From Xanthomonas campestris pv. campestris str. ATCC 33913 (lineage in GTDB: Bacteria > Pseudomonadota > Gammaproteobacteria > Xanthomonadales > Xanthomonadaceae): a DNA stretch of 32,000 nt. Shown one piece after another: positions 15,324-31,799 of this stretch. A program made the translations under genes and the position numbers. Location of the stretch: positions 5,044,188 through 5,076,187 of the forward strand of contig NC_003902.1 in the NCBI RefSeq assembly GCF_000007145.1, written 5' to 3'. The notes below the pieces were generated by a model. That model was not told the DNA's origin. It saw nothing but the letters and a program-made list of their open reading frames with translations, and did no database searches. How positions within the stretch are numbered: position 1 is the first letter of the stretch; each line of letters opens with the position of its first letter.

Positions 15324-15349
15324 ACCCGTGCGACGCCATCCGTGAAGGC

Positions 15350-16138: not shown

Positions 16139-16187
16139 TGCGCGTTCTGCAGGCGACTAACCAAGTAATCAGTGCTGTGCCGCGTTT

Positions 16188-16255: not shown

Positions 16256-16266
16256 GTATGCGTTGC

Positions 16267-16374: not shown

Positions 16375-16435
16375 AGGCACGTAACACCATTCTTCAAACA
16401 AGCCACCGACCAATCCACGTCGCCGCCCGCCTCAC

Positions 16436-16503
16436 GTAGGAGCGCGCTTGCGCGCGATGAAGCGTCACCGGTAATGCCCCGTCGCGCGCAAGCGCGCTCC
16501 TAC
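16436..16503. repeat. GTAG-type REP palindrome, copy 2
   Basis: Differs from 16188..16255 at 2 of 68 positions. It lies 11 nt downstream of the real glpQ stop. Confidence 0.9.
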
Positions 16504-16514
16504 GTATGCGTTGC

Positions 16515-17615: not shown

Positions 17616-17753
17616 GCCTTTCTCCAACGAAAAAGTAGCCATCAAACCAAAGCATGATCGCCAGGCGAACGCGGCCGATTGGTGGTGCGGCATGTACTAC
17701 ACGTACACCCCCGCTTTCTCCGCATCGTTCGTACACGCCTGACAACCACGCGC

Positions 17754-17899
17754 TAAGAGCGGCTAACAAAACGTAGCGAGCAGTCGTCAGGTGGGTGCGG
17801 ACGGCGCGGAGGAACCGGAGTGTACGGGGGTACATGAGAATTCCGAGCACCGGCCGCGCCCGCCTGGCGGCTGCGCAGTCGTTTTGATAGCTGCTCTTA
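17754..17899. repeat. 146-bp imperfect palindrome (MITE-like or long hairpin element)
   Basis: The left arm taagagcggctaacaaaacg...gcagtcgtcaggtgggtgcgg pairs with the reverse complement of the right arm, taagagcagctatcaaaacg...gcagccgccaggcgggcgcgg. The centre is near tgtacgggggtaca (17821..17834). Confidence 0.7.
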
Positions 17900-17976
17900 C
17901 GTCTTGTCAGCCACTCTAAAACTAACAGCGTCCATCAGCATCGGAAATCCGTAAACAGCAGCAAGACCCGCCGTTA

Positions 17977-18005
17977 CGAATCCCCAATCCCGATTCCCCA
18001 ATCCC
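17977..18005 (-). repeat. GGGATTG/GGGAATC heptad repeat, G4-capable, immediately after the TBDR stop
   Basis: The minus-strand sequence is GGGATTGGGGAATCGGGATTGGGGATTCG, with four G-tracts, starting 4 nt after the TGA at 18012..18010. Confidence 0.8.
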
Positions 18006-18009
18006 TAAC

Positions 18010-20325
18010 TCAGAACTTGGCATCCAACGTCAAGAACACCTGCCGCGGTGCACTGGCGTGGAATGCCAGCTGGCGGCCATTCGGATCGCTGTTGGCGAAC
18101 GCGGTGAGGTTGGAGGCGTAGCGTTTGTCGGTGAGGTTGGTCACGTTGAGCGAGAGCTTCAACGACTGCAGCATGCTGACCTGACCAAACTCATAGCCGG
18201 CGCCGGCATCGAACGAGGTGTAACCGCCAAAGCCCTGATCATTGGTGTAGGTGTAGAAGCGCTCACCGGTGTACTTGCCACGCAGGTTGACATTCCAGCC
18301 AGCGTAGTTGAAGGCGATTTCGCTGGCGAGCATGCGCTTGGGCGTATCCACCGTGGTCTTGCCGGCAGTGGCAATGGTCACCCCGTTCTGCACGTAGTTG
18401 TCGTCGTAGGTGGAGCGGTTGATCGAGGCCGAGTTGTACCACTGCAGGTAGCTGGTGGGCTTCCAGATCACCGTCAGTTCGCCACCGCGGCTGCTCACCG
18501 ACCCCACGTTGAAGAAGCGCGTGGTGCAGGCCGGCGTGGTGCCCTGCTGGATGCTGGCGCAGGGGTTGAGCGAGAGCAGGCGGTTGTCGAAGGTGACGTC
18601 GTAGCCGACCAGCGAGGCTTCGAAGCGGTCACGCACGAAGCGGTAGCCGGCTTCCAGGGTGCGCGACTTTTCCGGCTCCAGCGCGCCCACGCTGGCATCG
18701 AACGAGGCCTGCGTCACCAGCAATGGGCCACCGGCGCCGCCGCCCTGGAATGCGGCGATGTTTTCCGCGTACGAGGCGAACACTTCCTGCCCTTCGGCCA
18801 GGCGATATCCCAACCCGATCTGCGGCAGCACCGACTCGCTGGCCTTGATCGAGCCGGTGGCCACCGGCGCTTCCACTGCGATGCCCGGCGTCTCGCGCGC
18901 GGTCATTTCGGTGCTCGGGCTCTTGATGCCCAGATCCACGCTCAGGCGGTCGTCGAGAAACTTGAAGTTGCCCTGCACGTAGAACTGCCGCGTGGTGATG
19001 ATGTAGTTCTGCGAGAACAGCCGGCGGTCGGGATCCTGCAGGAACTTGTCATCGCTGACCGGCCCATCGATCCAGTAGAAATTGCGCTCCACATCGTGGT
19101 GGTTGCGCTCGTACCACAGCCCGGCTTCCAGATGATGCGGGCCCAGATCCCAACCGAGTGAGGCGATACCGCCAGTGCGATTGATCCAGTAGTTGGTGCT
19201 GCGGATCGAGATCGGCAGTGCCTGCGGCGTACCCGGGTTGGACGCTTGACCCGGTGACCACCAATGCCCCTGGCCCTTGTTTTCATGGTGATACACCTGC
19301 GTGTGCAGGCTGATGGCATCGTTGGGCTGGAAGTCGCCGGCCACGTAGAACAGGTCGTCGTCGCGCAGCGCGCGGCTCTGGTAATACGCATCGTCCACGT
19401 TATCCACGCCACCACTGAAGCTGCAGCGCGCCGCATTGCGCGTGGCCGGCGCGCAGTACGCCGCCGCCAACGCACGGTTCCAGTCCGGTGCGTACAAATT
19501 CCAATCCCAGCCCAGACCACGCGCCATGCCACTCTTGGACAGGTAGGAATAATCGGCTTGCGAGGTGCGCGAGGTATCGGCAAATGCGGTCAGCTTGCCG
19601 CCGTCGAACTGATACACGCCCTTGGCATTGAACTGGCGGGTGGTGGTCGGCGACTCGGGGCGCGCCCACATGTCGGCTTCGGCATTGATGCCGGACACAT
19701 ACGCCGAGAACCCGTTGTAGTCGCCGGTATCAATACGCAGGAAGGTGCGGCGGTTGGCATCGGAGCCCACCGTCTGCGACAGCTGGCCGCCAAATACGCT
19801 GGACGGATCGGCCGAGTAGTACTGGATGGTGCCGCCGAGGTTGCTGGTCGAGGCAGTACCGAGCGCACCGATACCCGAAGCCAGCTCCACGCCGCCAAAA
19901 TTCTCGGCGATCAGCGCGCGGCTGATGTTGAGGCCGTTGTAGTTGCCGTACGCGTTATCGCCCAGCGGCAACCCATCGAGCGTGTAGCCCAGACGCGTGC
20001 CGTTGAAGCCACGCAGGCTGATCGTCTGCGACTCTTCGTTCGCGCCGAAGGCATCGTTGGACTGCACGTTGACGCCCGGCATGCGGTTGAGCAGCTTCTG
20101 GATGCTGGTGCCCGGCGGCAGCACCGGAATGTCCTGCTGGGTGATGCGCTGCACCTGACGGGTTTCGCCCTGACCGATCACCGACACCGCATCGAGTTGC
20201 TGCACGGTTCCCGTGGCGGCAGACGCGTCGGCACCTGCCTCGGCGGGCGTATCGGCGGCGCGCACGGCCGGTGACAGCACGAGCGCGGTAAGAACAGCGG
20301 CACTGAGGAGATGGGTCTTGGGCAT
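18010..20325 (-). CDS. TonB-dependent outer-membrane receptor
   Basis: Track ORF is 18010..20400. I prefer ATG 20325 (MPKTHLLSAAVLTALVLSPAVRAADTP), which gives a signal peptide. It has a TonB-box-like LDAVSVIG, plug motifs (NRMPGVNV, ISLRGFNGTRLGYTLDGLPLGD) and the C-terminal barrel signature ...VFLTLDAKF. Confidence 0.9.
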   Translation of the reverse strand: MPKTHLLSAAVLTALVLSPAVRAADTPAEAGADASAATGTVQQLDAVSVIGQGETRQVQRITQQDIPVLPPGTSIQKLLNRMPGVNVQSNDAFGANEESQTISLRGFNGTRLGYTLDGLPLGDNAYGNYNGLNISRALIAENFGGVELASGIGALGTASTSNLGGTIQYYSADPSSVFGGQLSQTVGSDANRRTFLRIDTGDYNGFSAYVSGINAEADMWARPESPTTTRQFNAKGVYQFDGGKLTAFADTSRTSQADYSYLSKSGMARGLGWDWNLYAPDWNRALAAAYCAPATRNAARCSFSGGVDNVDDAYYQSRALRDDDLFYVAGDFQPNDAISLHTQVYHHENKGQGHWWSPGQASNPGTPQALPISIRSTNYWINRTGGIASLGWDLGPHHLEAGLWYERNHHDVERNFYWIDGPVSDDKFLQDPDRRLFSQNYIITTRQFYVQGNFKFLDDRLSVDLGIKSPSTEMTARETPGIAVEAPVATGSIKASESVLPQIGLGYRLAEGQEVFASYAENIAAFQGGGAGGPLLVTQASFDASVGALEPEKSRTLEAGYRFVRDRFEASLVGYDVTFDNRLLSLNPCASIQQGTTPACTTRFFNVGSVSSRGGELTVIWKPTSYLQWYNSASINRSTYDDNYVQNGVTIATAGKTTVDTPKRMLASEIAFNYAGWNVNLRGKYTGERFYTYTNDQGFGGYTSFDAGAGYEFGQVSMLQSLKLSLNVTNLTDKRYASNLTAFANSDPNGRQLAFHASAPRQVFLTLDAKF

Positions 20326-20365
20326 GAGCGGCGTGGGGGAAGAGTCAAAAGATGGCGGCAAGCGT

Positions 20366-20416
20366 GCGACAGCTGTCTTGCGCCGATGCGACTGCCGCAT
20401 GACAGTGCGGCGACAG
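20366..20416 (-). promoter_or_regulatory. Pho-box-like array (7-nt half-sites at 11-bp phase) upstream of the TBDR
   Basis: The minus strand reads CTGTCGC cgca CTGTCAT gcgg CAGTCGC atcg gcgcaag acag CTGTCGC. Four of five phased half-sites resemble the E. coli PhoB half-site CTGTCAT. The array ends about 40 nt before ATG 20325. Confidence 0.45.
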
Positions 20417-20449
20417 TCGCTGCGTTGCGCGCGCCGTCACTGCGTGGCG

Positions 20450-20483
20450 CCGGCATGCAGCTGTCATCTGCGCGTCGTAATGT
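20450..20483 (+). promoter_or_regulatory. Pho box plus -10 element upstream of the acid phosphatase gene
   Basis: CCGGCAT gcag CTGTCAT matches 12 of 14 half-site positions against CTGTCAT-N4-CTGTCAT. It is followed after exactly 10 nt by TAATGT (20478..20483), the canonical Pho-promoter geometry. The SD GAGGAG and ATG 20521 follow. Confidence 0.5.
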
Positions 20484-20520
20484 GCGCGTTCTTCCCGTTG
20501 TGTCGTTTGAGGAGTGTTCC

Positions 20521-21363
20521 ATGCCGCAGCGCCGTGCTCGCTCGTTCCATCGGACGCTGACTGGCGCCGCAATTGCCACATTGTTGATCGGCAGCGGCCT
20601 GGCGAGTGCGCGGGAGAAGCCTGCCTCCGCAGGTTCGGTGATTGCTACCGACGCACGTGGTTATCTGCAGAAAGAGCAATTGCCCGACAGCCTGCAGCTG
20701 GTTCCGCCACCGCCGCAGGATGGCAGCGCCGCGCTCGCCAACGACGAGGCAGTGGCCAAGGCGATGCTGCAACTACGCGGCACACCACGCTGGGACCTGG
20801 CCACGCGCGACGCCGCGCTGGGCTTCCCGGCGGCGGTTGGCCACTTCAGCTGCGCATTGGGCGTGCAGATCGACCAGGCCACGACGCCACACCTGCTGCG
20901 CCTGCTCGAACGCAGCCTGCGCGATGCCAGCACCAGCACCAGTGCGGCCAAGGGGCGCTACCAACGCCCGCGCCCGTTCATGCGCAACAATCAACCGATG
21001 TGCACCCCGGCCGACGACGACAGCCTACGCAAGAACGGCTCCTACCCGTCCGGTCACACCGCCATCGGCTGGAGCTGGGGCCTGATCCTGGCCGAACTGG
21101 CACCGGCCAGGCGCGATGCCCTGCTCGCTCGCGGCCGCGCCTTCGGCGACAGCCGCCTGGTCTGCAACGTGCACTGGCAAAGCGACGTCCTGCAGGGCCG
21201 CATCATGGGCGCCGCCACCGTCGCGGCACTGCATGGCAACGCCGAGTTCCAGAACGACCTGGCCGCCGCCCGCCGCGAGATAGCCAAGGCCACGCCGGCG
21301 AACTCCACGACATGCGCGGCAGAAGCCGCCGCCCTGCAGACGGTGTTGCCGGGCGTGCTGTAG
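20521..21363 (+). CDS. phoC: Class A bacterial acid phosphatase (PAP2 superfamily, PhoC/PhoN-like), secreted
   Basis: Track ORF is 20311..21363. I prefer ATG 20521 after GAGGAG, which gives a signal peptide (MPQRRARSFHRTLTGAAIATLLIGSGLASA). The PAP2 signature is complete: KGRYQRPRP, YPSGHT and SRLVCNVHWQSD. Confidence 0.9.
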   Translation: MPQRRARSFHRTLTGAAIATLLIGSGLASAREKPASAGSVIATDARGYLQKEQLPDSLQLVPPPPQDGSAALANDEAVAKAMLQLRGTPRWDLATRDAALGFPAAVGHFSCALGVQIDQATTPHLLRLLERSLRDASTSTSAAKGRYQRPRPFMRNNQPMCTPADDDSLRKNGSYPSGHTAIGWSWGLILAELAPARRDALLARGRAFGDSRLVCNVHWQSDVLQGRIMGAATVAALHGNAEFQNDLAAARREIAKATPANSTTCAAEAAALQTVLPGVL

Positions 21364-21634
21364 GCCACATCGCAGTGATGCGCGCCTGCGCGATGTGCAG
21401 GTCGCAGGCATGCAGCCGAACACTGCGGCTCGCAGCATTCGTCGATTGGCGCATGCAGGCATGAAGGCATGGGGATGCCTGGGCTCTGAGTCGATGGGCA
21501 GACTATCTGGCGCATGCGTGCAGCAGTGCGTTGCCCGCTCTAACGCTGGCAATAGTGCCGTTTCCACTGGTTACTTGTTGACCGCTGCCTTGGCGCATAG
21601 CCGCCGAGATGCTGGTCATGCGCGGCATTAGCGA

Positions 21635-21952
21635 TCACAGAGCGTTGGCCTGGCATAGGCGCCTGCAACCCACCATCCGTTGAGCACAGCAGTTGGCGGC
21701 CTCTTGGCAGGTGATGCTTCCGCAAGAGATGCGAGAGACCCGCTTGGTCGACCTGCGGGCGTGTTCTCCCGGCACTGACTCGCCCAGCTGTCGCACCACC
21801 TCGCTGAGGTCGAAAGGCCAGCGCGCACTGGCATGCCTAGATGCATCATCTGGCGTTTGCCACAACTCCTGGCCCTTAGGCACTTCCGCAGCAGCGGCAA
21901 ATACTTCATTCGCATACAGCATTTGCTCGAACGAATCCCGGCCCGAAAGCAT
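21635..21952 (-). CDS. Doubtful ORF or gene remnant in a lower-GC spacer
   Basis: 105-aa ORF (MLSGRDSFEQMLYANEVFAAAAEVPKGQELWQTPDD...) with visibly lower GC3 than neighbouring genes. I see no SD and recognise no family. The C-terminal half is Cys/Arg-rich and junk-like. Confidence 0.2.
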   Translation of the reverse strand: MLSGRDSFEQMLYANEVFAAAAEVPKGQELWQTPDDASRHASARWPFDLSEVVRQLGESVPGEHARRSTKRVSRISCGSITCQEAANCCAQRMVGCRRLCQANAL

Positions 21953-22073
21953 CGATCTCGTTAAAAGTTCCCGGAAGATGACATCTCTGTAAATCCTGGG
22001 TTAATCTTCAGACAAGCTTCAGGAAGCTGACATCCGTTCAGGTTGTTCAGGCGATCCCTGAAGTGCAGTTCCC

Positions 22074-22095
22074 CTCGACTGCGATCGCAGTCGAG
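22074..22095. promoter_or_regulatory. Perfect 22-bp palindrome upstream of the Oar-like TBDR (operator or 5'-UTR hairpin candidate)
   Basis: CTCGACTGCGA|TCGCAGTCGAG is perfectly self-complementary and lies 48 nt before ATG 22143. It is preceded by four TTCAG(G) motifs at 22007, 22018, 22037 and 22046. Confidence 0.35.
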
Positions 22096-22142
22096 TCCCA
22101 CGTCTGCAGTGTCCGTGACCGAATTCATCAGGAGAGAGAGGA

Positions 22143-25100
22143 ATGACGCGTCCAGGGGTTCGTAGTGTGTTGTGCAGGAACATCAAGCGCAGTGCCTTGA
22201 GTCTTGCGTTGGGGATGTGCGTCGTCGGTGGGGTGCAAGCGCAGAGCGCAGTCGGCTCGATCTTCGGTAGTGGCCAGCCAGGAAGTACGATCGCCATCCA
22301 GAGCCCGCAGACCGGCGTCAGCCGCTCGATCACCGCGGGCGCGGACGGGCGTTTCACTTTCAGCCAATTGCCACCGGGCAAGTACGTGATCACCGCCGAT
22401 GGGGTGACGCGCGAGGTGGACGTCAAGGTCGGTAGCGGCTCGCAGGTATTGCTCGGCAGCGATGCCAAGACACTGGACCGTGTGGAGGTCGTGGGCGTAC
22501 AGGCCTTCAATCCGATCGACGTGTCGTCGGTGGAATCGACCACGGTGTTCACGGCCGAGCAGATGGTCTCGCTGCCGGTGGCCAGTGATGTGTCGTCGGT
22601 GGCGCTGCTGGCGCCGGGCGCCGTTCGCGGCGACAGCGGCCTGGGCGCAGGCAATCTGGCCTCGTTCGGCGGCTCCTCGGTGGCCGAGAACGGCTACTAC
22701 ATCAACGGCTTCGACGTGACCAACATGCGCACGTTCCTGTCCTTTGCCAACATCCCGTTCCAGGGCATCGGCCAGCTGCAGATCAAGACCGGCGGCTACG
22801 GTGCCGAGTACGGGCGCTCGCTGGGCGGCATCGTCAGCATCGTGACCAAATCCGGCTCCAACGACTGGCATTACGGCGCCAGCGTTGAATGGGCACCGGA
22901 CTGGGGCGCTGCAGCAGCCAAGAACGTGCGCGAGCGCGATCCCGATGCGTCGGACCCGCTGTACCAATACCGTAGCGATGACCAGTTCGACAGCACCATC
23001 TATTCGGCCTACGCCAGCGGCCCGATCATCAAGGACCGCTTGTTCTTCTTCGCAATGGTGGAAGGCCGCCAGGAGACGGAAGACAACTTCTACGCGCTGA
23101 CCAGCCGGCGTGTCAGTGACACGACGCCGCAGGGCCTGGTCAAACTCGACTGGTACATCAACGACAGCAACCTGGTCGAATTCACCGGCATCTACAACCA
23201 GGCCAAGACCAAGTACCGCACCTACGAATACGACACCGACGCCAACGGCGATAACCGCTACAACGTTGGCAGGCACGAAGTGCCGATCGAGCAGTACGAG
23301 ATGGAAAACGGCGGCAAGGTCGGCATCCTCAAGTACACCGGCTACTTCACCGACAATTTCACCGTGTCGGCGCAATACGGCTATTTGAGCAACCTGATCG
23401 ATTCCCGCTTACCTGCCAATCCCGCCGGCGGAGAGTGCCCATGGGCGTACAGCTTCGGCCTGACCACCAGCGTGATTGACCGCTATATCGGCTGCAACCC
23501 GGGCACGATCACGACCATCGCTGATCTGGATGCCGAACCCGATGAAGACGTCCGCAAAGCCTTCCGCGTGGATGGCGAATGGGTGCTGGGCGAGCACCGA
23601 CTGCGCTTTGGCGTGGATCAGGAAAAATACGAATCCAGCCACCGTGGCCAGACCTACGCCGGCGGCATCAACTGGGCGTACTACACCGTGCCGGGCAATG
23701 CTGTGGCAACCGGCGCGTTTGCCGGACAGCCGGGGCGTACGGTCAACGGTCAGCTCGTGCCGCGCGGTGCGCTGTATGCACGCTCACGCGTGTATCAGAC
23801 CAGCAGCTCCAGCTACGAGAACACCAATAGCGCGTTCTATCTGGAAGACAACTGGCAGGTCACCGAGAACTTCCTTGCCGTGCTCGGCTTGCGCGGCGAA
23901 AAGTTCGAAAACAAGAACGGTGATGGCATCGCCTGGATCGAGTCCGATTACAAGATGGCGCCGCGCCTTGGCTTCTCCTGGGATGTGCTCGGCGACGCCA
24001 GCCTGAAGCTATTCGGTACCGCCGGCCGCTACTACATTCCGGTGGCGACCAACTCGAGTATCCGTGCCACCGGTGCCGAATCGACCGTGTCCAACTGGTA
24101 CTTCGTCAATGGCTGGAGCGAAGCCGATGGCACGCCGGTGGGTCAAGGTGCGCAGATCGGCCAGACCCAGGCCAATGGCTCGCTCACTGCGCCGAATCCG
24201 GCCTCTGTCGCATCGACCAACCTGTCGCCGATGTACCAGGACGAAGTGATCCTGGGTGGCCAATTGCAGCTGACCGAGAACTGGATGGCGGGTGTGCGCA
24301 TGATCCGCCGCGAAGTGAAGTCAGGCATGGACGACACCTGCACAACCAACCCCTGGATTGACTGGGCCGCGGACAATGGCTATCCCGATTTCGATCCGGG
24401 ATCCGTGCCGAGCTGCTACTTCCTCAATCCAGGAAGCGATGTCACCCTCAATGTCGATTTGAACGGCGATGGCGAAGTCGAACTGGCCACCCTGCCTGCC
24501 TCGTACCTTGGACTACCTGAGTACCGTCGCCTCCACACGGCACTGGAATTCTTCTGGGAACGGACCGGCGAGAAGTTCAACTTCCAGGGCTCCTATACGT
24601 TTGCCAGGACACGCGGCAACGTCGAGGGCTACGTCAATTCCACGCTGGAACAGGAAGATGCCGGCCTCACTCAGGACTTCGACCACCGTCTGTTCACCGA
24701 TGGCACCTATGGGCCGACACCGAACGATCGTCAGCACACGCTCAAGCTGTTCGGGGCATACAACCTCACGCCCGAATGGCAGTTCGGCGGAAATCTGGTG
24801 CTGCAGTCCGGCCGTCCGATCAACTGCCAGGGCTATATCCCGCTGGACGATATTCCGCAGCCTGACCAGGGCAATCTCAGCGGTTACAGCGGCTCAAGCT
24901 TTTATTGCTTGAACGCTGAAGGCACACGCGAGCTACGCCAACGTGGCGACGAAGGCCGCACACCGTGGACCTGGACCTTCGATCTGGCAGCGGCCTACAT
25001 TCCCAATTGGGCCGACAACAAGCTGCGCATCAAGCTCGACGTCTTCAACCTGTTTAACAACGATCGCGTCACCGAGTACAACGAGTTCAGTGAGGCCTCG

Positions 25101-25187
25101 CGTGATGTGATCAGCCCGAACTACTTGAACGATGGCAATTACCAGACACCGCGCTCGTTCCGGCTGACGGCACGCTACGACTTCTGA
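22143..25187 (+). CDS. Oar-like TonB-dependent receptor with N-terminal carboxypeptidase-regulatory-like domain
   Basis: 1014 aa with a strong SD (AGGAGAGAGAGGA) and a signal peptide ending VQAQS. The N-terminal beta-sandwich-like region is GSTIAIQSPQTGVSRSITAGADGRFTFSQLPPGKYVITADG. It has a plug (GSSVAENGYYINGFDVTN, IKTGGYGAEYGRSLGGIVSIVTKSG) and the C-terminal barrel end RSFRLTARYDF. Confidence 0.9.
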   Translation: MTRPGVRSVLCRNIKRSALSLALGMCVVGGVQAQSAVGSIFGSGQPGSTIAIQSPQTGVSRSITAGADGRFTFSQLPPGKYVITADGVTREVDVKVGSGSQVLLGSDAKTLDRVEVVGVQAFNPIDVSSVESTTVFTAEQMVSLPVASDVSSVALLAPGAVRGDSGLGAGNLASFGGSSVAENGYYINGFDVTNMRTFLSFANIPFQGIGQLQIKTGGYGAEYGRSLGGIVSIVTKSGSNDWHYGASVEWAPDWGAAAAKNVRERDPDASDPLYQYRSDDQFDSTIYSAYASGPIIKDRLFFFAMVEGRQETEDNFYALTSRRVSDTTPQGLVKLDWYINDSNLVEFTGIYNQAKTKYRTYEYDTDANGDNRYNVGRHEVPIEQYEMENGGKVGILKYTGYFTDNFTVSAQYGYLSNLIDSRLPANPAGGECPWAYSFGLTTSVIDRYIGCNPGTITTIADLDAEPDEDVRKAFRVDGEWVLGEHRLRFGVDQEKYESSHRGQTYAGGINWAYYTVPGNAVATGAFAGQPGRTVNGQLVPRGALYARSRVYQTSSSSYENTNSAFYLEDNWQVTENFLAVLGLRGEKFENKNGDGIAWIESDYKMAPRLGFSWDVLGDASLKLFGTAGRYYIPVATNSSIRATGAESTVSNWYFVNGWSEADGTPVGQGAQIGQTQANGSLTAPNPASVASTNLSPMYQDEVILGGQLQLTENWMAGVRMIRREVKSGMDDTCTTNPWIDWAADNGYPDFDPGSVPSCYFLNPGSDVTLNVDLNGDGEVELATLPASYLGLPEYRRLHTALEFFWERTGEKFNFQGSYTFARTRGNVEGYVNSTLEQEDAGLTQDFDHRLFTDGTYGPTPNDRQHTLKLFGAYNLTPEWQFGGNLVLQSGRPINCQGYIPLDDIPQPDQGNLSGYSGSSFYCLNAEGTRELRQRGDEGRTPWTWTFDLAAAYIPNWADNKLRIKLDVFNLFNNDRVTEYNEFSEASRDVISPNYLNDGNYQTPRSFRLTARYDF

Positions 25188-25214: not shown

Positions 25215-25242
25215 ATCCGGCCTCGCAAGAGGCCGGATTTTT
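25215..25242 (+). terminator. Rho-independent terminator of the Oar-like TBDR gene
   Basis: atccggcctc gcaa gaggccggat followed by tttt, 28 nt after the stop. Confidence 0.8.
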
Positions 25243-25278: not shown

Positions 25279-26619
25279 TTACTTCCCGATACAAAAACTC
25301 GAAAAGATCTTGCCGAGTAGATCGTCCGCGCTGAGCTTGCCGGTGATTTCGCCGAGGGCTTCATGCGCCAGGCGCAGTTCTTCGGCGGCCAGTTCGAGCT
25401 GCTCGTAGCGCAGCTCCAGATCTGCGGCGTCGGCATGTTGTTCGGCGCGGTGCAATGCATCGACATGCCGCGTGCGCGCTGAAAATTCGCCATCCACGCT
25501 TTCTATGCCATCGCCCAGCGCCAGTTCGCGCAGGCGGGTGTGCAGGTGCTCCAGCCCCTGCCCGGTCACCGCAGACACCGCGATCGCATCGGCGTCCATT
25601 GGCCCAGCCACAGCCAGCAGGTCGCATTTGTTGTGGATCCACAACCGGCGCGGTACCGCATCAATGGCATCGCCGAGGGCATCGCGCGCGGCCTGCGGGT
25701 CACGTGCATCCAGCACGATCAGCGCCAGGTCGGCACGCTGCAGTTCGGCGCGCGCGCGGCGCATGCCTTCGCGCTCGATTGCATCGCCGCCCTCGCGCAG
25801 GCCTGCGGTATCGACCAGGGTCAGTTCGAATCCATCGAGCTGGATCGCTTCATGCAAGGTATCGCGCGTGGTACCGGCAACATCGGTCACGATCGCCCGA
25901 TCACTGCCGGCCAAGGCATTGAGCAAGGAACTCTTGCCGGCGTTGGGCGGACCGATGAGTACTGCGTGCAAACCATCGCGCAACTTGCGTCCACGTTCGG
26001 CATCGCGCAACAGCTGCGCAAGCAATGCGCGCGTGCGGGTGAGCTCCTCGCGCACCTGCGCGCCGCCCAGTGTGTCGAGGGGCTCGTCGGCAAAGTCGAT
26101 CGCCGCTTCCACATGGATGCGCAACCGCGTGAGGCTCTCACTCACCGCATCCACGCGCCGCGAGAACACACCGTCGAGCGATCTGCGCGCCGCACGCGCT
26201 GCGCGCAGATCGCCGGCGGCGATCAGGTCGGCAATCGCTTCGGCCTGTGCCAGGTCGAGTTTGCCGTTGAGGAAGGCCCGCTCGCTGAACTCACCCGCAC
26301 GCGCCTGGCGTGCACCCAGCGCGATGCAGCGGGCCACCAATTGCCGTAGCAGCACCGGGCTGCCGTGGCCCTGCAGCTCCACCACCTCTTCGCCGGTGAA
26401 GCTGTGCGGCGCGGGGAACCACACCGCGATGCCGTCATCGATCACCTCGCCCTGCGCATCACGAAAGCGCGCGTAACGCGCATGCCGCGATTGCAGTCCG
26501 GCGATGCCCAGCGCGGCGGCGATCTGTACAGACTGCGGGCCGGACAGCCGCACGATACCGATACCGCCAGTTCCGGCAGCAGTGGCGATGGCAACGATGG
26601 TGGAAGGCAAAGCATTCAT
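25279..26619 (-). CDS. mnmE: tRNA uridine-5-carboxymethylaminomethyl modification GTPase MnmE (TrmE/ThdF)
   Basis: Track ORF is 25279..26760. I prefer ATG 26619 ([27 protein letters not shown]...). The G-domain motifs [18 protein letters not shown] and NKCD are present, as is the C-terminal FCIGK. Confidence 0.95.
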
Positions 26620-26641: not shown

Positions 26642-29344
26642 TCACAGGGTCTGCAACTGTGCGCGTGCCTGCTCGGCACCGGCACCTTGCGGCTGCAGGG
26701 CGAGATAGGTGGTGTAGGCCTTGCGTGCCTTCTCGCGATCGCCTGCCTTGGCATAGGCATCGCCGAGGTTGAGATAGGCCACCGCGCGCGAGGGATCGAT
26801 CTTCAAGGTGTTTTCCAGCCAGCGTGCGGCTTCGGCATAGCGCTCCTGGCGGTAGTACACAAACCCCAGGTTATTGGCAGCCAATGCAAAGTCCGGCCGT
26901 AGCTTCAGGGCTTCGGCGAACTGCTCGGCGGCATCGGCGTAGCGTTTTTCCTTGTACAGCTGCAAACCACGTTCGTTGGCCAATTGCGCACGCTGCCGGT
27001 CGCTGCTCTTCACCGCGGTCGGCAGCACCAACGTGGCTTCGCCGCCCTGCAAGGTCTTGACCGTCACCGGCGCCGCGTTTGCCGGTACGCCGGCACTGAC
27101 CGCAGCCGGGCGCACCGCATCCACGCGGCCATTGAGCGCGATCGCGGCCGCCGACAACTGCGCGGTATCGGCGGTGAGGAATTCTTCGCCACTCGGCACC
27201 TGGAACACAAACTCACCGCCCTGCGATCCCGGCAGGCTGCCGAATGCCGGCGTCTGTGCCGACACCGCAGACACGGCCGGCGCGACATACGCGGCCAGCT
27301 CGGTTCCGGTGATCAAGCCATCGCCATTGAGATCGCCCTTGCCGGCCAGCGCCTGCAACACCACCCAGGTGAACACCGAATGCCCGTTCGGGCCACTGTC
27401 GGCCACCTGTTGATCGGCGCCGCCGGCGGTGAGCATCTGGCGCGCGATACGGCGGGCGTTCTCACGCAGGTAGGCGCTGGAACTTGGGCCGCCACGGGTC
27501 AATCCCAAACCGCTGTAGCAGGCATCCATCACGAACAGCACGTGCTTGGCCTGCAGGCTTTCGGCGATGTTCTGCAGGTCGCTCATGGCGATCGCGTCAT
27601 TGGCCAGATGCTCCGGGTCCGAATCCACCGGGATGATGTAGCCCAGGTCGCGCCCGGAGGCGAGCCGGCGCGTGGCGCCATGCCCGGCGAAGAACACGAA
27701 CACGCGGTCGTTGGTCTGCGCGCGTCCATCGCCGAGCCGGTCGTGGAACGCGGCCAGGATGTTGTTGCGGGTGGCTTCGGCATTCTTGAGCACGATCACC
27801 TGCGACGACGGAAACCCCAACGGGCCGGTCAAGGTGTTGGCAATCGCCTGCGCATCGTTGGCGGCGTATTCGAGCTTGGGCCAGCGCGCGTAGTCGTCGA
27901 TGCCGATCACGATCGCCCACGACTTGGCATAACCGGTGGTCACCGTTGCGGCCGCTGTCGCGCTGGGTGCGCGTGCCACCGAGAAATCGCGCCCGTTCCA
28001 GCCGGCAAACTGGTAGCCATCGGCAATCAGGCGATCCAGGATCTGCGGCAACGCTTTTACGGCGCGGTCGTGGATATCGTGGAACAGCACGATGCCGCGC
28101 TGTTCCTTGTTCACCTGGTCGAGCACGCGCTGCACGATCGATTCCGGCACCGGGTCGGCCCAGTCCATTGAATCGATGTTCCACATGATCGATTTCAGGC
28201 CCGCTTCGCCGAGCAATTGCAGCCCTTCGGCATTGCGTGCGCCATATGGAAACCGAAACAGCGGCGCGCGCTTGTCGTCCACCGCACGCAACAGCGTGTC
28301 GGTATCCAGCACCTGGCTGCGCAAGGCCGCACCGGTGGTCTTGGATAGCTGTGCATGGGTGAGGCTGTGATTGCCCACCGCATAGCCTTCTTCCATCAGG
28401 CTGTGGCTGATCTTGGCCAGCGGCGCCAGGGTCGGCTTGCCTTGCGCATCCAGGTTGCCCAGATTGCGCCCCACTTCGAAGAACACGCCGGGCACGTCGT
28501 AGCGTTTGAGGATGGCCACGATCTCTTCGGTATAGGCCTTGTGCGGGCCATCGTCGAAGGTCAGCACCACGGTCTTGGGCGGCAGGTCGCGGCCGAAGAT
28601 CTCGCTCTCGCTGTCGCGCGCGGAGAACGGATACGGCTCCACCACGCCGTGGTCGCGCAGGATCTTTTCGCGCGTGTACAGCGTGCGCAGATGCGCCACG
28701 TAGTCGTCCCATTTCTCGCGCTTGGGCGTGATGGCGCGGCTGCGATCGAAGCGGCTGAAGATCTGGGTCAGCTCGGTGTTGTAGGTGCGCTCGATTTCAT
28801 CCAGCGCCTCCAGGTCTTCGCCGATGCGCTGGTGCAGTTTCACCGCCGGCAATGCCGAATCGCGGCCAATACGCGCGTGCAAATCGCGCAGCACTTCGCG
28901 AAAGGCCAGACGATCGGCATCGTAGAGATCGGGCGCCGACTCGACGTCGTCCAGCACCGTGGCAAGGGTGGCAAAGCGGGTGGACGCCTTGGAGGCCAGC
29001 ACGGTCTCGAATCGTGCAGCAATACGCTCGCGCTGCTCCAGGTTCTCATGGAACAACTGCTGGCCCACGCTGCTGGAGGTGGCACGGTCGCGCGGCGATT
29101 GCGCGGCCTCATCGGCCAGCAACACGATGATGCGGCGATGCCGGTCCAGCTGTTCGCGCAACTGCGCGATCAGGACGCGCGCATCTTCGGCAGCGGGATC
29201 GTTTTGCGCGGCCGGCGTGGCGGATGCGGCCGGCTTGGCAGCCTCCTGCCCATCGCGCCCGTCCTGCGGTTTGCCGCAGCCAGCCAGCAGCAACAGCCCC
29301 AGACAACTGGCGCACAGCAACAGGCGGTGCAGCGGCAAAGACAT
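26642..29344 (-). CDS. Multidomain lipoprotein: NodB/CE4 polysaccharide deacetylase, caspase-like peptidase C14, EF-hand loop and TPR repeats
   Basis: Track ORF is 26642..30175, but its first 277 codons overlap yidC out of frame. I start at ATG 29344 ([23 protein letters not shown], lipobox LAGC), preceded by AAGGA. Motifs: TFDDG, HSLTH, RFPYG, LFHD (CE4); FFAGHG and VMDACYSG (C14 His/Cys); [12 protein letters not shown] (EF-hand loop); three C-terminal TPRs. Confidence 0.9.
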
Positions 29345-29404
29345 CACGAACGCATCCTTGGCAATGGTCAGCACGTGCGGTGGTGCACTGCGGGGGCACA
29401 TGTA

Positions 29405-29426
29405 CAAAGCCCGCCTTGCGGCGGGC
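29405..29426 (-). terminator. Terminator/attenuator-like hairpin right after yidC
   Basis: The minus strand reads GCCCGCC gcaa GGCGGGC followed by TTTGT, 10 nt after the yidC stop and about 60 nt before the lipoprotein ATG. Confidence 0.5.
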
Positions 29427-29436
29427 CTTGTTCCAC

Positions 29437-31158
29437 TTACTTGGCGTTGGCCTGGATGATCTTGCTCGGCTTCTCGCCGTGCTGGCGGATCATCCACCAC
29501 TGGATCAGCAGACCCAGGCCACCGTTGACCACCCAGTACAGCACCAGGCCGGCCGGCATGAAGGCCATCATGACGCCGAACACCAGCGGCATGAACTGCA
29601 TCATCTTGGCCTGCATCGGGTCCATGCCCGGGGTCGGGGTCAGCTTCTGCGTCGCCCACATGATGGCGATGTTGAGCACCGGCAGGATGAAGTACGGATC
29701 GCGCGCGGTCAGGTCCTGGATCCAGCCCAGCCACGGCGCCTGGCGCAGTTCCACCGATTCCACCAACACCCAGTACAGCGCGAAGAAGATCGGCATCTGG
29801 ATCAGCAGCGGCAGGCAGCCACCCATCGGGTTGATCTTTTCCTTCTTGAACAGCTCCATCGTCGCCTGCTGGTACTTCTGGCGGTCGTCGCCGTAGCGCT
29901 CCTTCAACTGCGCCAGGCGCGGCTGGAAGCGGCGCATCTTGGCACCGGACTTGTACTGCGCGGCCGACAGCGGATACAGCGCCAGGCGCAACAGCACCAC
30001 CAGGCCAATGATCGCCCAGCCCCAGTTGTGCAGGAAGCTGTGCAGATGGCTCAGCACCCAGAACAGGCCCTGGCCGATGATGGCCATGATCGAGAAGCGG
30101 CTGTAGTCGACCACGCGGTCCAGGCCCTTCACGTCTTCCTTGGCGAGCAGGCTGACCAGCTTCGGGCCCACCCACAGGCGCGCCTCGGTGCTGGCACTCT
30201 GGCCCGGTGCCACGGTGAAGGCTGGGCCACGCAGCTCGGCCACGTCACGCGGGCCATCCTGCGCCAACACGTACAGCGAGGCCTGGTCCTTCTGCGGGAT
30301 CCACGCGGTGAAGAAGTGATGCTGCAGCAGGGCCACCCAGCCGCCGGTGATCTGGCGATTCAGGCCACCGTCGTCCATGTAGTCCTTGAACGCCCGGCGC
30401 TCATACCCTTCCTGCGGGCTGTACCAGGTCGCGCCGTTGAAGCTGAAGGAATCCGGGTTGGTCATGCCGCGGCTGAGGATGGTCGGCACCCGGCTCAGCT
30501 TGCGGAACACATAGCCATTCCACGCCGCATCGCTCTTGTTGATCACCTCATCCTTGATCGAGATCGCGTAGCTGCCGCGCTGCAAGGTGAAAATGCGGCG
30601 GATCGACACGCCATTGGGGCCGTTCCACACGAACGGCACTACCAGGGTGTTCTGGCCCTTGGCCAGCTCAAACGTGGTGCCCGGCTGCTCGGCACGGAAA
30701 CCGCCCACGCCCGGCACCGGCGAGCGCTCGCTGGCCCAGCCGCTGGTGGCGTTATACGGATGCGCGGCGTCTTCGGTCAGCAACTTGACCGGCTCGGTGC
30801 CGTCCTTGGTCTGCGGGAACTGCAACAGCTCGGCGTCGAGCACGCTGCGGCCGTCCAGCTTCAGGCGCAGCACGTCCGAGGTCAGGGTGATTGCCGGCGC
30901 GGCACCGGTAGTAGCCGGCGTGGCCGTGGTGGTGCTGGTCGCCGGCACCGCGGCAGGGCTGCCGGCTTGCGGAATTGCCTGTGCCGACGGCACGTTCGCC
31001 GCGGGGGCCGCGGCGTCCGGATCGCGCGCCGCCGGGACCGCCTGCGAGGCGATCGGCGTCGGCGCATTGGCGGCCGCCTTGTCCTTGCCCCACTCCATCC
31101 ACAGCAGTGCCGCGACCATCAGCCAGGCAAAAATCAGGAAAACACGGGTCTGGTTCAT
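29437..31158 (-). CDS. yidC: Membrane protein insertase YidC
   Basis: 573 aa. It begins [23 protein letters not shown], has a large periplasmic domain, and carries a C-terminal core with [39 protein letters not shown] and [12 protein letters not shown]. Confidence 0.95.
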
Positions 31159-31173
31159 CGGGCAGCAACTCGC

Positions 31174-31620
31174 TCAGTCGGAACGGGGGTCCGGCTCTGT
31201 CGGGGAAAGGGAGGATGGGCGCGGTGCCCTGGCGGGCGGCATTGTGCCGGGCGCGGCAGGCAGGGGCAATGCGCCGGCACGGCGCAGCAGACGCACGAAG
31301 GCGTCGCGGATCTGTGGATTGGTCGCTTTGGCGGCCGCCGAACGGGCCACGATGACGTAGTCACCGCCGGCAAGCTCCGGCAGCAGGTGGCGCATGGCAT
31401 CGCGCAGGACCCGCTTGATTCGGTTGCGTCCCACCGCACGCGTATCGACCTTGCGCGATACCGCCATGCCCAGGCGCGGCGGCGTCTCGCCACTGCGCCA
31501 GTGCAGGCTCAGCAACGGGTCCGAGGTGCGGCGCGCGGTATCGAAGACGACCGTATATTGCGCACGCGTACGAACCCGCGCAGAGCGAGGAAATCGCCTG
31601 CACGGGTTCGATGCGTTCAC
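31174..31620 (-). CDS. rnpA: Ribonuclease P protein component
   Basis: The track ORF starts at TTG 31662, overlapping the rpmH stop. I prefer GTG 31620, which places [18 protein letters not shown] at the position typical of RnpA N-termini. The RNR-like motif [16 protein letters not shown] is present. The Pro-rich C-terminal tail of about 30 aa is unusual. Confidence 0.85.
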
Positions 31621-31658
31621 TGAAGGGATTGCCTCGGCCGCAGGGAGCGGCGCGGCAA

Positions 31659-31799
31659 TCAAGCGCTCAGGCGCTTGCGGCCCTTGGCGCGGCGGCGAGC
31701 CAGGATCTTGCGGCCGTCGGCGGTTGCCATACGTGCGCGGAAGCCATGGTCGCGTGCTCGCTTCAGGTTGCTGGGTTGGAAAGTACGCTTGGTGGCCAT
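31659..31799 (-). CDS. rpmH: 50S ribosomal protein L34
   Basis: Below the track's size cutoff. Reverse-complement translation from ATG 31799 reads [46 protein letters not shown], which is canonical L34. Confidence 0.95.

Follow-up and report, generated by a model that had tools for sequence, protein, structure and literature searches.

The gene at 26642..29344 on the minus strand of the window (the whole 32,000-nucleotide stretch of Xanthomonas campestris DNA that was analysed) encodes a protein of four parts: an N-terminal helical domain, a CE4 deacetylase, a C14 protease and a TPR module. We read this fusion protein, with a probability of roughly 0.45, as a self-contained periplasmic envelope enzyme that combines a PgdA-type deacetylase with an Arg/Lys-specific protease, each acting on presumed substrates. 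The identities of the domains, the intact catalytic residues, the conserved export signal and the rigid architecture are established by the results given below. The protein is highly conserved and widespread, and the bacteria that carry this presumed envelope enzyme include important plant pathogens as well as the opportunist S. maltophilia.

Neither the architecture nor the pairing with trmE is new, both having been published in 2012. Asplund-Samuelsson et al. (2012, PLoS One 7:e49888, PMC3501461) use the name "Xanthomonas-type metacaspase" for the combination of PF01522, a metacaspase domain and 1-3 TPR repeats, and list Xanthomonas, Xylella, Stenotrophomonas and two Acidobacteria as hosts. 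They cite Raju et al. 2007 as having tied the gene, GI 88792532 of X. campestris pv. glycines, to programmed cell death with caspase-3-like and PARP-like activity, and describe Xanthomonas death with DEVD-cleaving activity and a 55-kDa immunoreactive band. The gene itself is no different from the published one, with the same protein family, the same species, the His-Cys dyad and the place upstream of trmE. It has the features of the class (PF01522, metacaspase, 1-3 TPR repeats, ~97-100 kDa, upstream of trmE), the computed mass of the mature protein being 95.5 kDa. To what the consulted part of that paper describes, the present analysis adds the export signal with its lipobox, the N-terminal helical domain, the acidic S1 pocket and the EF-hand-like loop, and extends the distribution from Gammaproteobacteria and two Acidobacteria to Betaproteobacteria, Myxococcota and Bacteroidota. 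The main additions are a family-wide export signal, an S1 pocket of the Arg/Lys type and no detectable PARP domain.

A preliminary description of the locus, made from the sequence alone, had stated that no characterised function was known for such a fusion. This was partly mistaken, because the architecture and a claimed role were already in the literature (PMC3501461), and it holds in so far as rigorous biochemistry is concerned: our literature search returned no genetic or biochemical study of the fusion gene and no demonstrated substrate. The bacterial cell-death literature cites the protein as a caspase-3-like, PARP-like executioner, whereas its sequence points to an exported enzyme with Arg/Lys specificity and no PARP domain. 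If the latter reading holds, the fusion protein may not be the source of the DEVD-cleaving activity of Xanthomonas.

The gene, its neighbours and its export signal

The coding sequence is complete, running from ATG 29344 to the TGA stop at 26642-26644, and encodes 900 amino acids, as had been described. A ribosome-binding site, AAGGA (29355..29359, minus strand), lies 10 nt from this ATG and 7 nt from an alternative start, GTG 29347, one codon 5' of it. The GTG is the better spaced of the two, which is a small correction, and it agrees with the 901-aa form that carries the NCBI name. The protein matches P0002 at 99% identity, an entry with 786 member sequences that is named for X. campestris. 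The database name of the X. campestris product is "polysaccharide deacetylase family protein", with Xanthomonas-type metacaspase as an alias, and the gene is probably XCC4239 of PMC13133917.

The gene mnmE, also called trmE (25279..26619, minus strand), has its ATG only 22 nt past the stop of the fusion gene, and the two are therefore very probably co-transcribed. Their order is kept in 73 of the 80 Xanthomonadaceae loci among the best 80 matches listed by a genome-contig search, and the operon with trmE is already noted in PMC3501461. Farther upstream of the fusion gene are yidC and rnpA, as in the published Xanthomonas-type metacaspase loci. A terminator-like hairpin, GGCCCGCC-GCAA-GGCGGGCT followed by TTTGT (29408..29427, minus strand), lies 10 nt past the yidC stop. 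Since a consensus terminator scan did not report it, the T run being too short, it is a weak terminator candidate, and it gives a faint suggestion that the fusion gene may be partly insulated from yidC.

The protein begins with a signal peptide (aa 1-23; 29276..29344, minus strand) in which positive charges at the N-terminus and a hydrophobic core precede the lipobox LAGC at residues 20-23. This is the pattern of a bacterial lipoprotein, a signal peptide ending in [LVI][ASTVI][GAS]C, and the lipobox with Cys23 is found exactly where it had been described. Cys23 is the putative lipidated first residue. The Gly at position +2 avoids the Asp rule of E. coli, the sorting rules of Xanthomonas itself not being established here, and a placement in the outer rather than the inner membrane is at most presumed.

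The lipobox was found by pattern in 115 of 120 Xanthomonas and Stenotrophomonas orthologues, which agrees with the extracytoplasmic location proposed earlier; four more orthologues carry variants and one is N-terminally truncated. Distant homologues have a plain signal peptide or a membrane anchor in its place, and an N-terminal hydrophobic segment is present in 101 of 113 of them. A predicted N-terminal export signal is kept throughout the family, in Xanthomonadaceae in the form of a lipobox. The lipobox is not kept outside Xanthomonadaceae, and lipid anchoring would thus be inessential to function. The signal peptide is followed by a low-complexity tether rich in Ala, Pro and Gln (aa 24-46; 29207..29275, minus strand), which is predicted to be disordered, with pLDDT <50 for residues 23-46 in the full model, and which is unconserved in alignment A1.

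Domains of the fusion protein

The first domain behind the tether, the N-domain (aa 47-235; 28640..29206, minus strand), is a seven-helix bundle according to the predicted structure and alignment A1. The first ~230 residues had been described as charged helix without a motif; instead, they hold a conserved and confidently folded domain. Its stand-alone model has a pLDDT of 90.3 and a pTM of 0.84, and the conserved residues in alignment A1 are R70, D144, L146, F148, Y188, E191, R203, R209, W212 and Y215. No match was obtained in Pfam or NCBIfam, nor in the PDB by phmmer or with a 21-sequence profile, and a Foldseek search of the stand-alone domain against the PDB gave nothing significant (best E 0.23, TM <=0.41). 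The predicted domain is a family-specific helical bundle without a described relative. Bdellovibrio Bd3279 (5jp6) likewise has an all-helical domain N-terminal to its catalytic barrel, but that "cap" is only about half as large as the N-domain and resembles it in neither sequence nor fold. Homology between the two was rejected, because the N-domain model does not retrieve 5jp6 and the CE4 barrel by itself accounts for the TM-score of the full model against 5jp6 (Foldseek, 422 columns, rmsd 10.3 Å).

The CE4/NodB deacetylase domain (aa 247-456; 27977..28606, minus strand) matches PF01522 over residues 253-384 with 88.7 bits against a cut-off of 23.1 (E 4e-25). Its five motifs are TFDDG (262-266), HSLTH (326-330), RFPYG (364-368), DSMDW (391-395) and LFHD (420-423). 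They supply the Asp-His-His metal triad as well as the catalytic Asp and His, and agree column for column with S. pneumoniae PgdA (SpPgdA). All motifs listed in the preliminary description lie at the residues it gave, and motif 4, DSMDW, was absent from its list. D264 aligns with the SpPgdA residue mutated in the D275N crystal form, and the domain has 35% identity to SpPgdA (2c1g) at an rmsd of 2.5 Å. In alignment A1 the motifs show little or no variation, and 109-113 of 113 distant full-length homologues carry them.

The five motifs and the Asp-His-His metal site are shared with SpPgdA and Bd3279, the peptidoglycan deacetylases that are the nearest solved structures. Between motifs 1 and 2 the domain carries 11 inserted residues that SpPgdA lacks, and unlike both enzymes it is fused to a protease, its activity on peptidoglycan being putative. 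The nearest sequences and structures overall are deacetylases of peptidoglycan, chitin and xylan, and the motifs fail to discriminate between peptidoglycan, chitin oligomers, PNAG, LPS sugars and O-acetylated xylan. No NCBIfam equivalog reaches its cut-off for the fusion protein.

A flexible linker (aa 457-470; 27935..27976, minus strand), with pLDDT <50 at residues 458-469, connects the two catalytic domains. Judging from the model, it is a candidate processing site, and a cut there would give halves with computed masses of 49.0 and 46.5 kDa. These predicted masses are near that of the 55-kDa immunoreactive species reported for Xanthomonas in PMC3501461.

The second catalytic domain is a C14 peptidase of the metacaspase/orthocaspase type (aa 471-716; 27197..27934, minus strand), assigned by PF00656 (80.5 bits against a cut-off of 21.4, E 2e-22), by alignment with the yeast metacaspase Yca1 and by Foldseek matches to Yca1, AtMC9 and MALT1 (E ~1e-7). 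The motifs are FFAGHG (551-556, with His555), VMDACYSG (605-612, with Cys609), GHSVFTW (654-660) and GEFVF (710-714), so that the earlier C14 assignment, with both catalytic residues, is upheld. In the alignment with Yca1, to which the domain is only about 20% identical, His555 and Cys609 fall within the catalytic GHG and DSCHSG motifs, and both residues are present in all 113 of 113 distant homologues. With catalytic residues intact and conserved in both domains, the view that both enzymes look catalytically competent is supported as far as sequence can tell.

Two residues of the S1 pocket, Asp497 (in AANDA) and Asp607 (in DAC), do not vary in alignment A1, and about 111 of 113 distant homologues keep the Asp497 position. 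Mapped by motif and not by structural superposition, the two residues are the equivalents of TbMC2 Asp95 and Asp211, a pair that accepts a basic residue at P1 and confers Arg/Lys specificity (PMC6426788). The pocket thus predicts Arg/Lys specificity, not specificity for Asp. An invariant Arg617 lies in a disordered loop just past Cys609. True caspases are Asp-specific and have a basic S1 pocket, whereas the pocket here is acidic and the nearest structures are those of metacaspases and a paracaspase. The domain shares the caspase/hemoglobinase fold, the GHG and DxCxSG dyad and the two S1 Asp residues with Yca1 (4f6o), T. brucei MCA2 and cyanobacterial orthocaspases. Unlike type I metacaspases and orthocaspases, which are cytosolic, it is predicted to be exported and is fused to CE4 and TPR parts. 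Its closest C14 paralogues bear PEGA surface domains.

Nor does the domain fall among the caspases of defence systems. It scores 87.1 bits with NF047832 (EACC1-associated caspase) against a cut-off of 140, its match to the PADLOC "caspase" model PDLC02987 (E 2e-21) is a generic domain match, and for the defence-system types (PADLOC, CHAT/gasdermin-type) there is no partner gene in the window and the protein is exported.

Inside the C14 domain is an EF-hand-like loop of 12 residues (aa 671-682; 27299..27334, minus strand). It follows the pattern D-x-[DNS]-x-[DNS]-G-x-[ILV]-x-x-x-E and is flanked in the model by helices at 657-669 and 680-694; residues 677-679 form a short strand. A perfect loop at these residues had been recognised correctly, but it had been taken for a separate element after the C14 domain. 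The loop type is present in 107 of 113 distant family members. Among 60 related C14 proteins that lack a CE4 domain, 39 carry it, mostly at 63-70 residues past the catalytic Cys. The loop belongs to the C14 subfamily and is no separate module. No Pfam EF-hand family reaches E 0.1 on the fusion protein and the paralogues are sub-threshold; the C14 domain encloses one such loop and not the pair that makes up an EF-hand domain. The loop probably binds Ca2+. In TbMCA2 and Yca1, Ca2+ is bound by an Asp cluster, whereas the putative Ca2+ site of the fusion protein is the single EF-hand-like loop 62 residues past the Cys.

A variable linker (aa 717-780; 27005..27196, minus strand) follows, which is rich in Ala and Pro in this protein, has pLDDT <50 at 746-780 and has a counterpart of coiled-coil character in distant homologues (alignment A1). 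The C-terminal TPR module (aa 781-900; 26645..27004, minus strand) consists of three TPR repeats and a capping helix, with seven helices at residues 782-899 in the model. TPR_2 matches with 60.1 bits against a cut-off of 27, in three stretches, in line with the three repeats counted previously. All three Pfam assignments expected in the preliminary description (PF01522, PF00656 and TPR) are thereby above cut-off, with scores well outside the range of chance. The pTM of the full-length model is 0.51, and the arrangement of the domains is uncertain.

The protein resembles E. coli NlpI, CpoB/YbgF, PilW, Tgl, PgaB-PgaA and PelA-PelB in having a lipobox and/or a short periplasmic TPR module. Its TPR part scores weakly with the NCBIfam models of NlpI, YbgF, PilW and Tgl, all far below the curated cut-offs. 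Unlike NlpI, YbgF, PilW and Tgl, the TPR part is covalently joined to two enzymes and has no known partner. By analogy, it may be a docking device for a partner.

A rigid architecture without conserved partner genes

The four-part architecture is rigid and is not accompanied by conserved partner genes. The N-domain, CE4, C14 and TPR parts are encoded in one ORF at 35 of 36 assessable metagenome loci, and the TPR module is present in all 33 of 33 complete fused metagenome ORFs. Among control CE4 loci without the N-domain, 0 of 33 have a C14 gene within 10 kb. The rare unfused N-domain-CE4 genes adjoin a TPR-CHAT gene, two C14 genes or a Trypsin_2 protease gene. The neighbours of the fusion gene differ wholly between lineages, and no common neighbour was found across eight contexts of distant or unfused homologues. 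The homologue P0125 adjoins PEP-CTERM/EPS, sugar-transferase and epimerase genes, and the L049 copy lies 4 nt upstream of an LPS-core cluster of GT4, WaaP-like kinase and WaaL genes; these two contexts hint at other glycans.

Proteobacteria, Acidobacteriota, Myxococcota and Bacteroidota, all of them diderm phyla, account for the named members, save for a doubtful Candidatus Saccharimonadales MAG and a few contaminated records. The order of the four parts seen in Xanthomonas recurs in Acidobacteriota, Myxococcota and Bacteroidota. The family is also found in the predatory or antagonistic groups Lysobacter, Myxococcota and Stenotrophomonas. The Xanthomonas and Stenotrophomonas proteins are 77-81% identical.

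Possible roles in the cell envelope

In the reading that we prefer, that of a self-contained envelope enzyme, an N-terminal lipid anchor and a flexible tether of ~25 residues would hold the protein at the membrane in Xanthomonadaceae. In its first half, the N-domain and the metal-dependent CE4 domain would remove acetyl groups from a GlcNAc/MurNAc envelope glycan, most probably peptidoglycan. In the second half, the metacaspase/orthocaspase-type cysteine protease would cut after Arg or Lys, not Asp, possibly under the control of Ca2+ bound to the EF-hand-like loop, and the three-repeat TPR module would dock a partner protein or a substrate. Since one ORF holds all four parts in several phyla, deacetylase and protease most likely work at a common site, namely the sacculus with its associated proteins. 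The protein may be activated, or its halves parted, by cleavage in two flexible linkers (457-470 and 611-626), perhaps through autoprocessing. If a glycan deacetylase and a clan-CD protease were obligatorily coupled in this way, the remodelling of the wall would follow a new type of logic.

The published reading is a different one, in which the "Xanthomonas caspase" is an intracellular, caspase-3-like death executioner for metabolic or oxidative stress in rich medium, with a PARP-like deacetylase half. The 55-kDa band that, like DEVD-cleaving activity, accompanies cell death in Xanthomonas (PMC3501461) would fit half of a 95.5-kDa protein, and DEVD-AMC and FITC-DEVD-FMK remain in use as markers in later papers (PMC4006831; PMC13391759). 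However, the export signal is conserved family-wide, which would place the catalytic domains outside the cytoplasm, away from NAD+ and DNA, and the two S1 Asp residues would select Arg or Lys, the opposite of caspase-3. Pfam matches down to E 0.1 include no PARP catalytic domain, the half called PARP-homologous having the canonical CE4 fold. The export signal, the Asp residues of the pocket and the lack of a PARP domain together argue against a cytoplasmic, DEVD-cleaving, PARP-like enzyme, and we consider the published reading highly improbable. No knockout of the fusion gene was found in the literature search. E. coli is not known to have a C14 gene, so that a DEVD assay giving a signal in this species would be non-specific. 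Caspase-3-like activity in E. coli is reported by the same laboratory (PMC4006831). It is reasonable to suppose that the envelope-remodelling role suggested in the preliminary description would fit the sequence better than the cell-death reading does.

Death could also be triggered in the periplasm, by an autolysis switch in which deacetylation marks the cell's own peptidoglycan, the protease frees or activates wall-degrading or wall-tethering proteins, and unleashing by Ca2+ or stress leads to the lysis observed as "programmed cell death". Such a switch would reconcile the published view with that of an envelope enzyme. In its favour are the export of the protein, the apparent competence of both enzymes and the occurrence of the family in Myxococcota, a phylum with developmental lysis. 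In Bdellovibrio, the prey wall is marked for later destruction when Bd3279, the best structural match, deacetylates it (PMC4876506; PMC7511926), and the 55-kDa species is tied to death (PMC3501461). The proposal is nevertheless inferential throughout. The gene lies in a housekeeping cluster, with probably constitutive expression together with mnmE; it is kept in many organisms without a reported death programme; and no cognate lysozyme or inhibitor gene is linked in the contexts examined. We regard such a switch as unlikely. A surface enzyme directed against foreign walls (of fungi or competing bacteria) or against host-derived proteins, for offence or defence, would likewise be consistent with the match to a predator enzyme acting on the prey wall, and also with the occurrence in Lysobacter, Myxococcota and Stenotrophomonas and with the action of CE4 enzymes on chitin. 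It is scarcely credible, however, for a protein whose lipobox and short tether would, in Xanthomonadaceae, keep it bound to the membrane of the producing cell; the fusion locus has no linked secretion-system gene, and the identity between Xanthomonas and Stenotrophomonas, together with the housekeeping contexts, is unlike that of the usual conflict genes.

Lastly, the substrate could be a secreted or surface polysaccharide, such as a PNAG-like EPS, the LPS core or O-antigen, with the TPR module docking to an export machinery as in PgaB-PgaA and PelA-PelB and the protease processing a component of that machinery. By analogy, a CE4 lipoprotein with TPR repeats recalls PgaB and PelA; the TPR part is weakly similar to PrsT (a PEP-CTERM TPR lipoprotein), PilW, Tgl and GltE; and the contexts of P0125 and L049 point the same way. 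On the other hand, the gene has neither a polysaccharide synthase nor a porin linked to it, be it in Xanthomonadaceae or in most of the other contexts, the neighbours in the window being yidC and mnmE, and no equivalog match places the protein with PgaB, IcaB or PelA. The PgaB models of NCBIfam reach 24-27 bits against cut-offs of 322-923, on the first motif only, and the nearest relatives act on peptidoglycan, chitin and xylan. A role in polysaccharide modification is thus doubtful.

The envelope enzyme that we prefer might conceivably act as a periplasmic "mark-and-cut" machine in at least four diderm phyla, in which a gated deacetylase marks the cell's own wall and a Ca2+-controlled Arg/Lys protease cuts wall proteins recruited by the TPR module, its unleashing being the basis of the caspase-associated death of Xanthomonas. 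This extended scheme is very unlikely as a whole; if it were true, the "apoptosis-like" death of Xanthomonas would be an envelope event and not a cytoplasmic caspase cascade.

Domain organization and earlier descriptions of the fusion protein

The fusion gene is read on the minus strand from ATG 29344 to the TGA at 26642–26644 and encodes 900 residues. The open reading frame agrees with the preliminary description, but a GTG at 29347, one codon further 5', is better spaced from an AAGGA ribosome-binding site and agrees with the 901-aa form found under an NCBI name. The G+C content of 65% and GC3 of 81% resemble those of the neighbouring genes. Its product shares 99% identity with a 'polysaccharide deacetylase family protein' of Xanthomonas campestris, and Stenotrophomonas orthologs show 77–81% full-length identity.

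Location of the motifs by script placed LAGC (20–23), TFDDG (262–266), HSLTH (326–330), RFPYG (364–368) and LFHD (420–423) at the residues originally assigned, as well as His555 in FFAGHG, the Cys609 motif, the loop at 671–682, GHSVFTW and GEFVF. The sequence DSMDW (391–395), which is motif 4 of the CE4 (NodB/polysaccharide deacetylase) domain, is also present. The predicted Pfam matches were recovered far above the curated cut-offs, with Polysacc_deac_1 at 88.7 bits, Peptidase_C14 at 80.5 bits and three TPR_2 units. In an alignment of the C14 (caspase-like protease) segment, His555 and Cys609 fall on GHG and DSCHSG of the yeast metacaspase Yca1, confirming them as the catalytic dyad. All five CE4 motifs align with S. 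pneumoniae PgdA in an alignment of the CE4 segment, and D264 corresponds to the position substituted in the D275N crystal form of that enzyme. Both enzymatic domains have intact catalytic residues.

The preliminary description knew of no characterised function for such a fusion; the architecture itself had already been described. The 'Xanthomonas-type metacaspase' was defined by Asplund-Samuelsson et al. in 2012 as PF01522 followed by a metacaspase domain and 1–3 TPRs, with a mass of 97–100 kDa and a conserved His-Cys dyad (PMC3501461). The same paper lists Xanthomonas, Xylella, Stenotrophomonas and two Acidobacteria, reports a conserved operon with trmE and figures the gene of X. campestris 8004 (PMC3501461). 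In a 2026 comparative paper, XCC4239 is probably the X. campestris CE4 fusion gene (PMC13133917). Our literature search found no further functional study of the gene. The fusion is real and was correctly dissected, but it is already present in the literature and in database annotation.

The N-terminal 230 residues or so had been described as charged helical sequence without a motif. This view needs revision, since residues 47–235 form a real, conserved domain (the N-domain), in which ten positions are fully or almost fully conserved among 21 full-length homologs of only 33–62% identity. Modelled alone with AlphaFold2, the N-domain is a seven-helix bundle (pLDDT 90.3, pTM 0.84). It gave no sequence or profile match in Pfam, NCBIfam or the PDB, and its best PDB match in Foldseek had an E-value of 0.23 and a TM-score of at most 0.41. 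The top Foldseek match of the full model was the Bdellovibrio peptidoglycan deacetylase Bd3279, in which an all-helical N-terminal domain caps, and may gate, the active site (PMC4876506). Both proteins carry an all-helical N-terminal domain; since no relationship between these domains was detected, a gating role for the N-domain would be suggested only by analogy.

The proposed EF-hand has the canonical ligand pattern and lies between two helices in the model, but it is not a separate module. No EF-hand profile reached an E-value of 0.1 on the fusion protein. Among 60 related C14 proteins with no CE4 domain, 39 have a similar loop, mostly 63–70 residues past the catalytic Cys, and it is found in 107 of 113 distant family members. 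Judged from these comparisons, the loop is a built-in trait of the C14 subfamily and plausibly a candidate Ca2+ site. The closest C14 paralogs (P0165, P0176, P0181, P0183, P0206 and P0220) contain two C14 matches in tandem, or a C14 domain with three or four PEGA domains behind it, pointing to a large, little-studied group of exported bacterial caspase-like proteases with an EF-like loop.

Two variations were observed in the CE4 domain. Compared with SpPgdA and a Caldanaerobacter esterase, the domain has 11 additional residues between motifs 1 and 2, encoded at window 28420–28470 (about aa 293–309); this insertion forms a small beta-hairpin in the predicted model and might shape the substrate cleft. 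One of the aligned full-length homologs (P0132) has degenerate CE4 motifs, TFDAGP and NHGASLA in place of NHSxxH, with the protease Cys kept, which suggests that the deacetylase half is able to decay in some lineages.

Coupling of the deacetylase and the protease

A profile-free search, run exhaustively over 1.84 billion representatives, recovered about 20 clusters (50% identity) with the full architecture, the most distant sharing 35% identity with the query. Named members come from Salibacteraceae, Pyxidicoccus, Hyalangium, Myxococcus, Koribacter, Terracidiphilus, Blastocatellia, Reinekea and Acidovorax; all are diderm except for one doubtful Candidatus Saccharimonadales MAG and some mislabelled assemblies.

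The same search also returned some shorter proteins, of about 430 aa, that have the N-domain and CE4 but no protease. These were used as bait for a metagenome scan, and the loci were searched with our own HMMs for the N-domain, CE4, C14 and TPR. CE4 and C14 were found in one ORF in 35 of the 36 metagenome loci with downstream sequence available, L131 being the single truly unfused locus, and the TPR module ends all complete ORFs (33/33). No C14 gene was present within 10 kb in any of 33 control CE4 loci without the N-domain.

Six loci with unfused N-domain+CE4 proteins had enough flanking DNA, and two further contigs were too short to judge. The unfused gene lies 527 nt upstream of a 1111-aa TPR-CHAT gene, with a CHASE2 gene nearby (L088, 7793–11128), within 6 kb of two genes for exported C14 proteins of the same type (one with OmpH), beside an ECF sigma factor (L097, 1–4191), or 68 nt downstream of a 624-aa Trypsin_2 protease gene (L092, 4059–5933). 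In L096 (8475–12234) it is located near a MurQ-like SIS protein, a NagB-like glucosamine-6-phosphate isomerase, YdjC and a BadF-type sugar kinase, which is an amino-sugar or wall-recycling set. Another copy follows valS with no visible link, and a copy on a 3-kb contig has only small unannotated ORFs upstream. Deacetylase and protease thus belong together as an obligatory pair, and this speaks for action on a single target or at a single site.

Export, protease specificity and possible function

The lipobox was confirmed by pattern search in 115 of 120 Xanthomonas and Stenotrophomonas orthologs, with variants in another four and a truncation in one. Distant full-length homologs carry a lipobox, a plain signal peptide or a membrane anchor, and a hydrophobic segment is present at the N-terminus of 101 out of 113 homologs belonging to other phyla. 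These signals suggest that export is a family trait and lipidation a trait of Xanthomonadaceae. Asp497 and Asp607 are both invariant in the alignment of 21 homologs and correspond by motif to Asp95 and Asp211 of TbMC2, the residues described as making room for a basic side chain at P1; the same paper states that orthocaspases cut after positively charged residues (PMC6426788). The Asp497 position is kept in essentially all 113 distant homologs. With this acidic pocket conserved, cleavage of DEVD would not be expected from the C14 domain.

We consider it possible, with a probability of about 45%, that the gene encodes a bifunctional enzyme of the envelope, exported and tethered to a membrane. 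Its CE4 half, together with the helical domain particular to it, would deacetylate a glycan of the GlcNAc/MurNAc kind. The most probable substrate is peptidoglycan, because it is common to all diderm lineages with the protein and because the nearest characterised enzymes act on it; modification of EPS or LPS instead is considered unlikely. The C14 half would cut after Arg or Lys in a protein recruited by the TPR module, probably under Ca2+ control. What the analysis shows directly is the identity of the domains, their catalytic integrity, the export signal and the obligatory coupling; the substrates, the Ca2+ control, the processing and the assignment to a membrane are inferred. Autoprocessing may occur at Arg617, which is invariant in the alignment and lies in a disordered loop of the model eight residues past the catalytic Cys (an Arg follows the Cys motif in 113/113 homologs), and in the flexible 457–470 linker. 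A cut between CE4 and C14 would yield halves of 49.0 and 46.5 kDa, close to a reported 55-kDa species.

The role usually cited for this deeply conserved enzyme is contradicted by its sequence. The Xanthomonas-type metacaspase is tied by Asplund-Samuelsson et al. to Raju et al. 2007 and to caspase-3-like activity in 'programmed cell death' of Xanthomonas in rich medium (PMC3501461). Later work from the cell-death school continues to rely on DEVD substrates as markers, with no knockout of the fusion gene among its reported results (PMC13391759, PMC4006831). A cytoplasmic caspase-3-like, PARP-like protein is very unlikely given the conserved export signal, the acidic S1 pocket formed by Asp497 and Asp607, and the absence of any PARP family among Pfam matches down to an E-value of 0.1. 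The half claimed to be PARP-1-like has the canonical barrel of CE4 enzymes, with 35% identity to PgdA and an rmsd of 2.5 Å in the predicted model. These three points weigh against the cytoplasmic caspase-3/PARP reading and are compatible with lysis from the periplasmic side; a periplasmic autolysis switch would reconcile the protein with the cell-death literature, although we regard it as rather improbable. An enzyme aimed at foreign walls appears the most remote of these alternatives to the bifunctional envelope enzyme.

Gene neighbourhood

In the window, rnpA (31174–31662), yidC (29437–31158) and mnmE/trmE (25279–26619) are located on the minus strand together with the fusion gene. A GC-rich hairpin with a short T run lies 3' of the yidC stop, and the mnmE ATG at 26619 begins 22 nt after the fusion-gene stop, in agreement with the previously predicted two-gene operon with trmE. 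Among the best 80 Xanthomonadaceae loci listed, yidC precedes the fusion gene in 72 and mnmE follows it in 73, the exceptions being mostly contig ends. In Stenotrophomonas koreensis and a related MAG (L067, L070) the order is rnpA-yidC-mnmE-gene rather than rnpA-yidC-gene-mnmE, so that the place of the gene with respect to mnmE can vary even inside the family.

A strong terminator-like hairpin at window 25215–25238 (10 pairs, 7 G-C) separates mnmE from a convergent TonB-dependent receptor gene with a CarboxypepD_reg N-terminus (22143–25187, plus) and is probably a bidirectional terminator. The flanking genes at window 14990–25187 have an envelope and phosphate flavour, and include a rhomboid protease (14990–16138), a glycerophosphodiester phosphodiesterase (16515–17693), another TonB-dependent receptor (18010–20400, minus) and a PAP2 phosphatase (20311–21363).

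Outside Xanthomonadaceae, the neighbours of full-length homologs are PEP-CTERM/EPS genes (P0125), methionine synthase and Pqi genes (P0121), a UvrA-like gene (Acidovorax) or genes without an obvious theme (P0130). Three MAG contigs with Azonexus or Betaproteobacteria labels (L049, L050 and L053) carry copies with 82–84% DNA identity to one another and mutually unrelated flanks. The L049 copy (5566–8511), with 86% DNA identity to a Stenotrophomonas gene, has trpD-trpC-trpF upstream and an LPS-core cluster (GT4, WaaP-like kinase, WaaL) 4 nt downstream. The L053 copy lies between def-fmt and rsmB, and the L050 copy between leuA/Lrp and a ferric-reductase-like gene. The candidate explanations for these three copies are that the gene was transferred horizontally as a single unit or that the bins are chimeric. 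The unrelated neighbours across homologs suggest that the gene is a single, self-sufficient unit, often inside housekeeping clusters.

Stenotrophomonas-type copies with 76–81% identity were also found in records (L017, L074, L052 and P0056) labelled Nocardiopsis yanglingensis, Bacillus subtilis, Desulfobulbus sp. and the fungus Knufia peltigerae. These are almost certainly due to contamination or mis-binning, and L017 and L074 display the full rnpA-yidC-gene-mnmE synteny.
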